60,392 bases of DNA. It comes from Nannocystales bacterium (GTDB taxonomy: Bacteria; Myxococcota_A; Polyangia; Nannocystales; Nannocystaceae). The position numbers and the translations under genes were made by a program. A model generated the notes under the pieces. That model was not told where the DNA came from, made no database searches, and saw only the letters and a list, made by a program, of their open reading frames with translations. Below are positions 7,529 to 10,925 of the stretch, piece by piece; positions within the stretch are counted from its first letter, which is position 1, and each line of letters opens with the position of its first letter. The stretch covers positions 271,042-331,433 of the forward strand of contig JBOEGF010000014.1 in assembly GCA_050633305.1 (NCBI GenBank), written 5' to 3'.

Positions 7529-7794
7529 CGTTGTTCCTCCTGCTTCGAATGCGGCCCATCGCCGACGTCTGCTGCAGAGCCTTGGCCGAGAACACGAGAA
7601 GAACGGGAGCGAAAACCAAGGCGAGGCCTTGCGGGGCCCGTCCCTCGGCAACCGGCGTGCATGCAGGCCGACGCAGAGTGAAGCGCAACAGCGGGCCGTC
7701 CTTGGCCACAGCCTGTGCACCGACGCACCACAGAGCGCAGCGACACCACCAGAGCGGCTCACCTCTGGGGTGGACCGGTCGTCGGGTTCGCGCT

Positions 7795-7987
7795 CCCGTT
7801 CAGTCGATTGTTCTCGTACTACAGATCTTCATTCTGTCGCGTTTACCAATTCCGCCACTCCCCCATAGGAGTGGGGGAGCCAGGATTCGAACCTGGATGA
7901 GCCTCTGCTCTTCACAGAGGGTTGGGCTTCAAGCCCGATCTCGGCCACTCGCGATCTGGGGAACCCTCGGTGCCGATTCGACCCGGG
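7795..7987 (-). ncRNA. YrlA-like Y RNA (circularly permuted tRNA mimic)
   Basis: On the minus strand, in order: T-arm CCAGG-TTCGAAT-CCTGG (7896-7880), closed 8-bp acceptor-like hairpin CTCCCCCA/TGGGGGAG (7879-7858), D-arm TGGCGGAATTGGTAAACGC (7857-7839). The ends can pair: CCCG-GGTCGA (7987-7978) with TCGACT-gaa-CGGG (7807-7795). Confidence 0.7.
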
Positions 7988-8189
7988 CTGCTCTTCCGGA
8001 GTTGGAGTCTGGAACAGAGCACGGAGGCGTTGGAGGGCCGCCTGGGATGCGACCAAGGCTCTACAGAAGACGCCGCGTCCGGCGTGCGTGTCTCCGGGGG
8101 GAGACGCGGCACGTCAGACGCTAGGCGATGGAGATGGGGTTGAGCACAGGGATGTGACTCCTTCTTCGAATCCGCTTCGAAGCTGGAGC

Positions 8190-8217
8190 GGTTTAGCGCC
8201 GCAACCAAGTTCGTCAA
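8190..8217 (-). promoter_or_regulatory. Possible sigma70-type promoter for the ncRNA/slipin transcript
   Basis: TTGACG-16 nt-TAAACC on the minus strand. The -10 match is weak. Confidence 0.3.
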
Positions 8218-8395
8218 GACAATTTGTTCGGGGCCGTGTCAGCTAGAGCGCTTGATCTGCGACGCACTACGCTCCGGCTTTCGCCGTCGGCGTCGTTCCG
8301 ACGCATCACGCACTGCATCGAACTCTCGGTCCTCGCGCATCTCAGTGCGATTTCACTTCCTTGTTTCCATCGCCGCGCGGCGTCACGTTGTTCAT

Positions 8396-8773
8396 GTGGA
8401 TACGTTTCCCATCGAAGACCGTGCCGGGCTCCCGGCCCAAGCACTGACTTCGTTGCGGAGGGCGGTCGCAGTTCAGAACACCCTTCAGTCGGCTGTTCGG
8501 TGGGCGCTCGCGGAGGGGTATCGGCTCCTCGATGTGATCGACCAGGACGAGTTCACCCGGGATGTGGTGTTCGAAATGGGCGCGCAGCAGTACCTCGTGT
8601 ACGACGCGACGTGACTGGGTTCGGTCACGGCGGTCGCCGTGTGGGACTCCGTACCGACGGCCGATGTGCTTCTCGAAGCGCGTCTGGAGCGGGGCTGGCG
8701 GCCCACGCCCACCCCGACCGTTCAAGGGCCGCGCGTCCTGGGCCACGCCGCCAAGTACGACGCGAGCGTCTGA
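8396..8773 (+). CDS. Putative selenoprotein of unknown function (about 125 aa, in-frame TGA at 8612-8614)
   Basis: GTG 8396 reads ...DVIDQDEFTRDVVFEMGAQQYLVYDAT-[TGA]-LGSVTAVAVWDSVPTADVLLEARLERGWRPTPTPTVQGPRVLGHAAKYDASV-stop 8773. This ends 13 nt before the stop of the convergent gene. A SECIS-like hairpin follows the TGA. Confidence 0.7.
8615..8650 (+). promoter_or_regulatory. Bacterial SECIS-like stem-loop
   Basis: Stem CACGGC (8626-8631)/GCCGTG (8636-8641) with apical loop GGTC starting 17 nt after the TGA. A lower stem GGGTTC/GGACTC is possible. Confidence 0.65.
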
Positions 8774-8786
8774 CTCAGGGCACTCG

Positions 8787-9593
8787 TTATGCCGGCTGCT
8801 CGGTCGACGCTTCGCCTTCGGACGAGACGACATCCGTGGTCGCGGGGAACTCACCGTCCTCGATACAGGACACTAGGTAGGCTCGAACTCGCTTGGCGAG
8901 CTTGGACGCGCTCTCGCCCTGGTACGGCGCGGTGTCGAACTGGGGTCCGACGAAGACATCCACGGTTTGGAACGCGCGGAAGAACCAGCCCATGTTCTTG
9001 TTGTTGACCTCGTAGAGGCCACGGACTGCGATGGGGACCACAGGCATCCCGGCGTTGACCGCCATGCGGAAGACACCCGTCCTGAATTGGCCCACGTCCC
9101 CGGTCATCGTGCGGTGCCCTTCGGGAAAGGTCAGGACCGACATCCCGATCGCTTTGCGGTTCTTCGCGGCGGCGCTGATGTCCTGGATCAGGGTCTCGCG
9201 CTTGGTTTTGTCGACAGGAATTCCTTTCGACAAGCTCATCAACCACCCGTAGATCGGGATCTTGAACTGCCAGGCGTTCATCAACCCCGAGAACGCGTGC
9301 GGGATGACCTTTGCGGCCAGCATGCCGTCGAGCAGGTTGATGTGGTTCTGGCCGAAGACGCTCCGAACCTCGGGGTCGAAGTCCGGGTGGTAGTGCACCC
9401 GTAAGCGGATCGTCGCGATGGGCAAGGTCGCGGAGAACAACGGCGCCGTCACCCAGCCGTGCACCTTCTGGTAGGGGAACCGAAGGAGCAGCAGGGGGAG
9501 CGTGATGAACGCACCCAGGCCCATGACCGCGAAGGCAGCAGTCCATACGGCGGCGCTGTAGAGCGCCTGGCCGATCTTGCCCAGCAGCTTCAT
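8787..9593 (-). CDS. plsC: 1-acyl-sn-glycerol-3-phosphate acyltransferase (PlsC family)
   Basis: NHINLLD (HxxxxD), FPEGHRT and VVPIAVRG motifs, with an N-terminal TM helix. Confidence 0.88.
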   Translation of the reverse strand: MKLLGKIGQALYSAAVWTAAFAVMGLGAFITLPLLLLRFPYQKVHGWVTAPLFSATLPIATIRLRVHYHPDFDPEVRSVFGQNHINLLDGMLAAKVIPHAFSGLMNAWQFKIPIYGWLMSLSKGIPVDKTKRETLIQDISAAAKNRKAIGMSVLTFPEGHRTMTGDVGQFRTGVFRMAVNAGMPVVPIAVRGLYEVNNKNMGWFFRAFQTVDVFVGPQFDTAPYQGESASKLAKRVRAYLVSCIEDGEFPATTDVVSSEGEASTEQPA

Positions 9594-9806
9594 CCGCCGG
9601 ACTGTAGGCGATTGCGCCGTCTCAACCGTGCGCGCCGAACGGGGGGGCGGCAGGTGGCTGTTATTGCCGGCGTTTTCCCGTTTTGACACCAGGTGCAACC
9701 CCAGGTTGGCGCGCGTCTCGGTGAGCGGTTCGAAAACTCGAGCCTGTTTCGGCAAAGCGGACGTACCGCGGAGAAGACCCGCACCTTCGGATCCGTCGGA
9801 GTGCAC

Positions 9807-10925
9807 GTGAAGGCAACGAACATCGCAGCGGTGCTCGTCGCGTTGGCGATTGCCGGCTGCGACACTCCAACTCCTCACGACGAAGCCAACGACTACGGCC
9901 CGGGGATCGTCGTCCCAAAGCCCGAGCCTCGCCCGGTTCCCACGCCTGAGGTGAAGGAGGAGGTCCCCGTCGAAGATGGTCCGAACTGCGGCGAGCAGAG
10001 CATCGTCTTCGACTTCGCCACGCCGCAGGTCATGCTCGTGCTCGACAAGTCAGGGTCGATGGCGTCCAACACCTGGGACCACGACCGCGACGATGCCACA
10101 GCCGAGATCACGCGATGGGCTTCGCTCCATCAGGTGGTCCAGAACGTCACGACCGATTTCGATGCGCGGATGGAGATGGGAGCCGTCTTGTTCCCGGCGA
10201 TCGACGCGCCCAACGAAAGCAACGCCTTGGCGTGCTCGATGGGCGAGGCACCGGACGCGGGGTTGTCTGCGATGGGTGGCGATGCGGTGCTCGGTTCACT
10301 TCCGGCCGCCGATTCGGCGAGCATCTTCGGTGGAACCCCGGCGACGGCAGGGGTCCGCATGGCTGCGGCCCACCTTCTAGACGTACAGAGCGAGCAGCCT
10401 CAGGCGATCGTGCTCATCACCGATGGCGCAGCCAACTGCGCTGAGGACTCCATCGGATCGGGCTTGTTTCTGCAGTACGACAGCGCGCTCCCCGTCGCGG
10501 CCGCGGAAGCGTTCGCCGCTGGGATTCCGGTCTACGTGGTCGGTATCGATATCGAAGATGAGCTGCTGGAGCTTCCCGTCGCCAACCCTTGGGAACGGCT
10601 CAGCGAAGTCGCCGACTACGGAGGCGTTCCTCGCGACGGTGACGTCCCGTTCTACGATGTGTTCGACGAAGTCGAACTCGACGCTGCGCTGGCGTCGATC
10701 GCTGAGGAGGTCAGCTGTGCTGTACCTGTTCCCGAGCACTTTGATTCCGCTCGGGTCGAATTGACCATCGATGGCGCTCCGATCCTGGCTTCGGATTCCT
10801 GTGAGGCGGGGGAGGGGTGGATCGCGGACAGTCCCGGGCAGCTCCGGCTGTGCCCCGACACTTGTCTTGCGGCCCAGACCGGAACGACTGTGGAGGCCAC
10901 CATGAGCTGCATCCCGGAGGGCTGA
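9807..10925 (+). CDS. vWA-domain Cys-rich lipoprotein (myxobacterial type)
   Basis: Lipobox IAGC, MIDAS motif LDKSGSM, GGTP, LITDG, VYVVG, and a Cys-rich tail. Confidence 0.88.
   Translation: MKATNIAAVLVALAIAGCDTPTPHDEANDYGPGIVVPKPEPRPVPTPEVKEEVPVEDGPNCGEQSIVFDFATPQVMLVLDKSGSMASNTWDHDRDDATAEITRWASLHQVVQNVTTDFDARMEMGAVLFPAIDAPNESNALACSMGEAPDAGLSAMGGDAVLGSLPAADSASIFGGTPATAGVRMAAAHLLDVQSEQPQAIVLITDGAANCAEDSIGSGLFLQYDSALPVAAAEAFAAGIPVYVVGIDIEDELLELPVANPWERLSEVADYGGVPRDGDVPFYDVFDEVELDAALASIAEEVSCAVPVPEHFDSARVELTIDGAPILASDSCEAGEGWIADSPGQLRLCPDTCLAAQTGTTVEATMSCIPEG

Follow-up and report, generated by a model that had tools for sequence, protein, structure and literature searches.

Does the in-frame TGA at 8612–8614 of this stretch end a short gene of 72 codons, or is it read as a selenocysteine (Sec) codon within a longer one? 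The question is raised by an open reading frame (ORF) on the + strand of the window, by which we mean the whole 60,392-nt stretch of DNA that was analysed, taken from a contig of a Nannocystales bacterium (JBOEGF010000014.1). From comparison with homologous genes, we judge it very probable (roughly 0.9) that 8396–8773 (+) is one gene for a 125-residue selenoprotein, with UGA 8612–8614 read as Sec. The features on which the argument turns are the following.

8396..8773, + strand: predicted full coding sequence of the selenoprotein, 125 codons (one of them for Sec) and then a terminal TGA; the frame is continuous when TGA is translated as U

8396..8398, + strand: likely start codon GTG, at which the 72-aa database gene call P0002 begins

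8612..8614, + strand: in-frame TGA, the proposed Sec codon of residue 73; 138 of 139 distinct homologous genes have TGA at the aligned position

8615..8770, + strand: C-terminal 52 codons omitted by gene callers, the most conserved part of the family

8626..8641, + strand: candidate selenocysteine insertion sequence (SECIS) hairpin, stem 8626–8631/8636–8641, apical loop GGUC at 8632–8635

8771..8773, + strand: true stop codon TGA; homologues end 48–84 codons past the Sec codon with TGA, TAG or TAA

The original prediction, made from the letters of the window alone, described a frame that appears to stop at a TGA and then stays open for 52 codons, and the coordinates bear this out: the frame from GTG 8396 meets TGA 8612–8614 and continues through 8615–8770 until TGA 8771–8773. 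It had also remarked that the product has no Cys and no thioredoxin-type CxxU motif. The 125-aa read-through protein indeed lacks Cys, and neither CxxU nor UxxC was found around the Sec position, which is flanked by YDAT-U-LGSV in the window protein and by the consensus D.T-U-LG in the family. Homologues align to the read-through protein across residues ~5–120. Their N-termini begin at positions equivalent to GTG 8396, which is the likely start codon on this comparison, and no conservation was observed upstream of these positions or beyond the terminal stop. Taken alone, an open frame and the folding of the wider RNA context are unexceptional in DNA of ~65% GC, with long open frames on both strands in the window; it is the comparative data that lift the case above chance.

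Conservation of the internal TGA was examined at increasing phylogenetic depth. A six-frame search of 60 related genomes gave matches in 16, with the window's genome counted among them. All 17 matches held exactly one TGA, the strong ones in relatives covered query residues ~5–120 at 45–79% identity, and the TGA column was invariant in all 16 rows of the read-through alignment (A1). When one genome per species was scanned (185,579 species), 385 loci were returned, and the aligned codon was TGA in 80/80 of the best 80, which were examined for it. A second scan, seeded with the Cys homologue P0191, together with two further loci, gave 81 loci, of which 80 had TGA and one (L133) had TGC, a Cys codon. 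Pooling of 177 loci yielded 139 distinct gene cores, in which the aligned codon was TGA in 138 and TGC in one, with no case of TAA or TAG. At their true ends these 139 genes have mixed stops (TGA 89, TAG 30, TAA 19; one gene runs off its contig). Because ordinary stops vary in this family and the internal codon does not, the internal TGA does not behave as an ordinary stop. Support for the original prediction was to come from a conserved in-frame TGA or Cys at this position, and TAA or TAG in homologues was to count against it; the former is what the relatives and the pooled genes hold, and the latter occurs in none of the 139.

The record titles of the loci name Nannocystaceae, Polyangiaceae, Kofleriaceae, Myxococcus, Corallococcus, Pyxidicoccus and Haliangium, and metagenome-assembled genomes among them are labelled Acidobacteriota, Planctomycetota, Gemmatimonadota and Thermoanaerobaculia. 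A few further labels (Clostridia, Actinomycetota, Comamonas, Alphaproteobacteria) may reflect mis-binned or mislabelled sequences. An even sample of 201 genomes of the phylum contained a match in nine; eight of these carry TGA and one is a distant Cys-bearing relative. One related genome has, besides a strong copy, a second and very weak match (L036, G024:C29:307583–307900, +; E 0.00875, 33% identity, one TGA), which may be a diverged paralogue.

The sequence downstream of the TGA was then analysed for coding signal, using 45 codons from 87 distinct sequences. Diversity at codon positions 1, 2 and 3 was 0.243, 0.204 and 0.515, respectively, and the median dN/dS (nonsynonymous to synonymous rate ratio) was 0.265 (286 usable of 300 sampled pairs). 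On these figures purifying selection acts on the 45 codons that follow the TGA, and the downstream frame, whose conservation had been proposed as a check on the prediction, is kept. The consensus LG.VTAVAVW...ELL.ARL..GW.PTPT...G..LGHA makes this the most conserved segment of the family.

The predicted 6-bp stem with a GGTC apical loop 17 nt after the TGA was located at 8626–8641, where CACGGC and GCCGUG enclose GGUC and the stem begins 11 nt past the TGA. The hairpin alone folds at −9.3 kcal/mol (z −3.09), and 0/200 shuffles were as stable; its 49-nt and 89-nt contexts were no stabler than shuffles, 69/200 and 55/200 of which fold as well. For the consensus bacterial SECIS element, the part of a 2026 review that deals with it gives a loop of 3–9 nt, a stem of 4–16 bp, a G within the first two loop positions, a UGA-to-loop distance of 16–37 nt and a minimum free energy of −7.5 kcal/mol or lower (PMC13188914), and the window hairpin lies within all of these published limits. 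RNAalifold recovered the same 6-bp hairpin independently and unprompted. In a 16-sequence alignment, 99% of stem cells were paired, and the covariation that the original prediction had proposed to look for was found as compensatory changes in two of the six pairs: the outermost pair is CG in eight sequences, GC in six, GU in one and unpaired in one, and the second pair is AU in 14 and GC in two, the GC pair costing amino-acid replacements on both sides. The covariation score was reached by 0/500 column shuffles, and slid registers collapsed. Synonymous diversity at codons +6 to +8, which encode the top of the stem and the loop, was 0.11, 0.05 and 0.05, versus ~0.5–0.7 elsewhere.

The hairpin does not occupy one position throughout the family. 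Among 83 distinct TGA-downstream stretches, 58 form at least 5/6 pairs in the window's register and 25 do not. These 25 sequences (Myxococcaceae and some others; a subset of L051–L112 in alignment A4) have the protein motif.VSVW and a hairpin GUCUC-CGUGU-GGGAC at TGA+18 to +34, shifted 6 nt downstream, so that its loop lies 23 nt after the UGA; this shifted hairpin is nearly invariant, with one compensatory change. Counted over the 138 TGA genes, 91 fit the window's register and 47 the shifted one, and none fits neither (at least 5/6 pairs). The family thus seems, on sequence comparison, to have its SECIS in two registers. That the lone genome with a Cys codon has lost the hairpin was considered and rejected, as 5/6 pairs still form there, and that genome therefore offers no natural control.

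A Sec codon requires Sec machinery in its host, and the genome was to be checked for it. In the window's genome (11.0 Mb in 90 contigs, 92% complete), selA (397.3 bits), selB (265.2 bits; 296.3 including a C-terminal piece), selD (366.5 bits) and tRNA-Sec (67 bits) were all found above their curated cut-offs. Across the 16 gene-bearing genomes, selA was matched in 14 (above the cut-off in 13, and as a fragment at the end of a contig in one), and in the remaining two selB, tRNA-Sec and a selD that contains a TGA were found; the machinery was therefore present, at least in part, in 16/16, compared with selA in 25/44 genomes without the gene. The selD gene of the window's genome (G000:C4:133193–134122, −; locus L001) itself has one in-frame TGA, as do those of G031 and G054; since it does, SelD would be a second selenoprotein of the window's genome.

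We asked how the family is represented in protein databases. A profile search against 1.84 billion representative proteins gave 850 matches at E <= 0.001, and the best 150 were sorted: 98 are N-terminal pieces ending at profile position 72–73, 27 are C-terminal pieces starting at 75–83, 24 span the site, and the remaining one, a repeat protein, is a spurious match. At the Sec column, the 24 that span it have C in 12 cases, W in four, S in three, R in two, and G, P and a gap in one each, so that Cys is the commonest replacement; six more Cys forms were found in additional database proteins, and a scan for genome loci with the Cys homologue P0028 found none. Cys homologues of the proposed selenoprotein exist but are rare. 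S, R, G and W codons are single-base neighbours of TGA. For one Trp form (P0233) the DNA (L120:1501–1872, +) was inspected; it has TGA at this position, and the database entry also reads the true TGA stop as W, so the entry is a translation with a TGA=Trp table (table 4) and there is no Trp codon. The same mistranslation artefact may account for further W entries in protein databases. The original prediction had named Trp, Arg or Gly at this position as signs of a nonsense mutation or a true stop; all three do occur in homologues (W 4, R 2, G 1 of 24), yet they are a minority against at least 125 entries that are broken at the TGA.

That standard gene callers would truncate the protein, as had been anticipated, is plain from the window gene itself: its database entry P0002 has 72 aa and is 100% identical across 58% of the read-through query. 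Close relatives of the window protein are stored in the same way, 18/18 as entries of 70–147 aa covering 54–58% of the query. NCBI and UniRef entries of 71–72 aa from Myxococcus xanthus, M. virescens, M. stipitatus, Corallococcus, Pyxidicoccus and Hyalangium stop just before Sec under the names "hypothetical protein" or "Uncharacterized protein". A 143-aa protein encoded by a different genome of the phylum (L117 61..492, −; G219:C4) has the family's N-terminal part (…GEFHHDVV…LVVSTN-C-NGG…), with Cys aligned to Sec; its C-terminal half differs, it matches no Pfam or NCBIfam family, and its sequence may point to a wider superfamily.

Proteins of the family are ~120–135 aa long, and known domains were sought by several routes. 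The read-through protein and its Cys homologues matched no family of Pfam, NCBIfam 20.0, PHROGs or PADLOC, and the N-terminal half of the read-through protein gave a single, sub-threshold Pfam match (BMFP, E 0.13). Pfam matches of 21 full-length homologues were sub-threshold only (E 0.011–0.06), if the spurious repeat protein P0038 is set aside; NCBIfam gave no match for four Cys homologues, and a sequence-profile search of the PDB gave nothing better than E 0.24. An alignment of 77 rows was assembled from the window protein, 10/15 relatives, 45/79 distinct loci and 21/24 database proteins, and AlphaFold2 run on it modelled the whole read-through protein as a single compact alpha+beta domain (predicted local distance difference test score, pLDDT, 94.9; predicted template modelling score, pTM, 0.88). 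In order, the model has one strand, a pair of helices, a meander of four strands, another helix, a small hairpin and finally a short helix. Sec73 is placed where strand 4 turns into strand 5, and the QDE(F/Y)T.D motif where strand 2 turns into strand 3; we infer from the meander topology of the model that both turns would lie on the same edge of the sheet. Searched with this model against the PDB, Foldseek returned no match at E <= 0.001, and the best of 48,161 chains in VIA-align (OsmE, 4dm5; Z 6.2) was within the tool's stated chance range. The natural Cys homologue P0028 gave noise-level scores in the ESM Atlas (0.84). The predicted secondary-structure order does not appear thioredoxin-like, and no thioredoxin-fold chain was among the Foldseek and VIA-align matches listed.

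Two residues besides Sec stood out in the 139 genes. The His of QDE.T-H-D is present in 125, and a Cys 43–50 residues after Sec likewise in 125 (exactly at +47 in 109); both occur together in 119, His only in six, Cys only in six and neither in eight. The window protein and its whole genus are among the eight with neither: the His position is Arg (residue 55, 8558–8560), and the position equivalent to Cys U+47 falls in the region of residue ~120, near the C-terminus (8750–8770). D51 and D56 are invariant and E52 nearly so in the 77 sequences, including those without Sec or Cys at the Sec column. A His-Asp-Sec/Cys/Ser catalytic triad was considered and rejected; His is absent in 3/3 Ser forms and 4/12 Cys forms.

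From these observations we propose the following course of events. UGA 8612–8614 would be bypassed as a stop during translation; the hairpin at 8626–8641, with its GGUC loop and 11 nt downstream, would act as a bacterial SECIS element and, by the established mechanism, recruit SelB carrying Sec-tRNA(Sec), so that Sec would be inserted at residue 73 and translation would continue for 52 codons to the real stop at 8771. As judged from the sequence marks, the recoding mechanism is canonical. The Sec would then be the reactive centre of a redox site. In most members the Cys 47 residues past Sec could form a selenenylsulfide with it; the window's lineage would have a single-Sec form reduced by an external thiol, which its type would need because that lineage lacks both His and Cys. 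This redox reading, in which the distal Cys would resolve the Sec of typical members and an external thiol that of the window's type, is put forward by analogy and tentatively, at somewhat under even odds. That the family uses Sec almost exclusively suggests that Cys would replace it poorly here; given this rarity of Cys at the site and the lack of a motif of the thioredoxin type, selenium probably has a role in these proteins which sulfur could not fill.

Other readings of the TGA were weighed against Sec insertion. It might be a true stop separating two small genes, one giving a 72-aa product from 8396–8614 and the other a 44-aa product from GTG 8639. Gene callers and public databases treat the halves as separate N- and C-terminal entries, and the GTG at 8639 is in frame; the counts of internal codons (TGA 138, TGC 1, TAA/TAG 0) nevertheless differ sharply from the terminal mixture, the eight codons between the TGA and GTG 8639 (LGSVTAVA) fall within the family's most conserved stretch, Cys-containing homologues are single proteins across both halves, and the protein is modelled with confidence as a single domain in which the TGA falls at the turn of a beta-hairpin, all of which makes two genes extremely unlikely. 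UGA could instead be recoded without Sec, by near-cognate read-through with Trp, Cys or Arg via the hairpin or as an occasional regulated extension. Database proteins with W, R, G or S at the column would suit such decoding, and the identity of the inserted residue is read here from DNA only. We regard this as very unlikely: the gene was found only in genomes with Sec machinery (16/16, versus selA in 25/44 without the gene), the hairpin fits the SelB-type SECIS model, the commonest replacement (12/24) is Cys, as is usual for Sec, the one W form traced to DNA results from translation with table 4 and also reads through a real TGA stop, and TGA serves as an ordinary terminal stop in 89 of the same genes, the window's included. 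A pseudogene with a nonsense mutation, or a real gene on the opposite strand in the form of the overlapping 170-aa ORF at 8342..8854 (−), we hold to be practically negligible. The minus ORF is the longer one, and high-GC DNA yields long open frames on both strands; against this, the TGA is conserved across records labelled as several phyla, dN/dS downstream is 0.27, and the most variable codon position (0.515), position 3 of the + frame, is position 1 of the minus frame, which is therefore not coding-like.

A different function for the proposed Sec was also considered. Sec73 might be a metal ligand which, with the His of QDE.THD, Cys U+47 and the invariant Asp residues, binds a soft metal ion, in which case the site would resemble Mo/W ligation by Sec in formate dehydrogenase or Ni ligation in [NiFeSe] hydrogenase. 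His and the C-terminal Cys co-occur in 119/139 genes and are lost together in eight, D51, D56 and E52 are kept even where the Sec column has no Sec or Cys, the fold is not recognisably thioredoxin-like, and several metal-binding selenoprotein families are among those catalogued in the review (PMC13188914, Table 1). The window's lineage, however, keeps a costly Sec without the His and the Cys, a pattern more in keeping with a reactive Sec that works by itself, and no metal-binding family or fold was matched. We consider a metal site unlikely, though a serious alternative to the redox site.

Several points weigh against the selenoprotein reading or its functional extension. We infer Sec insertion at residue 73 from hallmarks that are all at the level of sequence. 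The homologues are kin, so the counts given above (138 of 139 and the like) overstate independent support. Much of the conservation of the hairpin overlaps that of the amino acids A-V-A-V-W, and at the shifted hairpin RNA and protein constraint are hard to separate because it is nearly invariant with one compensatory change. Among full-length database proteins, 11/24 have W, S, R, G or P at the Sec column. For function, there is neither a conserved neighbour nor a structural match to serve as a handle, and the redox mechanism is weakly grounded for the window's lineage, which has no CxxU/UxxC and no Cys partner.

We next compared the proposed selenoprotein with known systems. The Sec-UGA/SECIS arrangement of Escherichia coli formate dehydrogenase is alike in having an in-frame UGA followed by a stem-loop within the coding region, in a genome with selA, selB, selD and tRNA-Sec; the host protein is unrelated. 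The fdhF loop contains GGUC, and the minimal fdhF element is 11 nt after the UGA. With its 4-nt loop starting GG, its 6-bp stem, its loop 17 nt from the UGA and its −9.3 kcal/mol, the window hairpin also resembles the bacterial SECIS consensus as summarised in the review (PMC13188914), from which about one third of the family (47/138) departs with a CGUGU loop on a hairpin 6 nt further downstream. Glutathione-peroxidase-like and peroxiredoxin-like selenoproteins are comparable by analogy only: there would be one reactive Sec in either case, and the present family has conserved Gln and Trp residues and, in most members, a distant Cys that could resolve a selenenic acid; no similarity of sequence or fold to them was found, two helices and a four-strand meander being predicted and not a recognisable thioredoxin fold. 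In most selenoprotein families Cys forms outnumber Sec forms, the reverse of the 138:1 observed here.

Closer in kind are the orphan families DG, DW and DF (deep-Sep, PMC12013277) and GOS_B and GOS_C (PMC2398784), which, as far as the available parts of these papers describe them, are also small, have one Sec and no known domain, and were recognised by a conserved TGA, Cys homologues and a SECIS-like hairpin. They have no sequence relationship to the present family (the NCBIfam models given for them in Table 1 of the review match neither the window protein nor its Cys homologues at E <= 1), and Cys homologues are numerous in them, in contrast to the prevalence of Sec here (138 TGA to 1 TGC in genome loci). 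The MerB-like selenoprotein SaoL, in the available text of its preprint (bioRxiv 2022.07.06.499078), suffered the same annotation artefact; it belongs to another family, with a CU motif and a conserved nine-gene neighbourhood, and the window gene is without conserved neighbours.

The original prediction did not recognise the protein as a member of a known selenoprotein family, and this held in every library and paper checked. Table 1 of the 2026 review lists 119 prokaryotic selenoprotein families, each linked to a profile model (Pfam, TIGR, NF, cd or PTHR), and no match was found among their Pfam, TIGR or NF models (PMC13188914). The motifs TULG, QDEYT and QDEFT are absent from four supplementary text files of the GOS selenoproteome paper (PMC2398784). 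In the available text of the other sources, the new families of deep-Sep come from Desulfobacterota (PMC12013277), BSepDB compiles 111 known families with myxobacteria unmentioned, and Peng 2016 and Zhang 2006 searched known families with Myxococcus unmentioned. The family was absent from the full-text literature searched, a search to which figures, bioRxiv supplements and the BSepDB website are external and in which an earlier mention is possible. As far as checked, the protein family is unreported.

The surroundings of the gene were also examined. A convergent ORF at 8787..9878 (−) contains an acyltransferase domain (PF01553, E 7.6e-19), which makes the earlier label plsC-like a fair one, and 13 nt separate it from the selenoprotein gene. 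When flanking ORFs of 80 loci were clustered, no neighbour was common to more than seven loci; recurrent neighbours are functionally unrelated (HlyIII, a chemoreceptor, GlnRS and a HEAT-repeat protein), and neighbour genes are not conserved beyond close relatives. Upstream, a terminator-like hairpin with a T-rich run lies at 8333–8350 (+), 46 nt before the start codon, and the 630-bp stretch 7763–8395 is without a convincing gene. Within it, a tRNA-like piece was observed at 7858–7896 (−; context 7910–7860), consisting of a T-arm, CCAGGUUCGAAUCCUGG, then CUCCCCCA, a 7-nt loop and GGGGGAG closing an acceptor-like stem. It scores weakly with transfer-messenger RNA (tmRNA) models (tmRNA_permuted 21 bits against a gathering score of 47; cyano_tmRNA 18.6 bits), and ARAGORN found no tRNA or tmRNA in the window; a standard tmRNA is present elsewhere in the genome (G000:C7:7661–8025, 168.6 bits). 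The piece could be a 3' remnant of a tRNA or tmRNA, for example an integration-site scar.

Selenoprotein genes are systematically mis-annotated, and this family is stored as hypothetical proteins of 70–72 aa and, in metagenome catalogues, in disconnected halves. Its recognition would set right hundreds of gene models and would add one to the ~119 catalogued prokaryotic selenoprotein families. Beyond this, it is possible, though speculative, that the window protein is the founding member of a so far unrecognised selenoprotein family, in which Sec is near-obligatory (138 TGA to 1 Cys codon) on a fold without a solved relative, a widespread orphan in aerobic soil myxobacteria including Myxococcus xanthus, where Sec, His and a distant Cys (the last two lost in the window's lineage) would form a new selenium-based catalytic or metal site. 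Because the gene occurs in genetically tractable myxobacteria, its function is directly testable.

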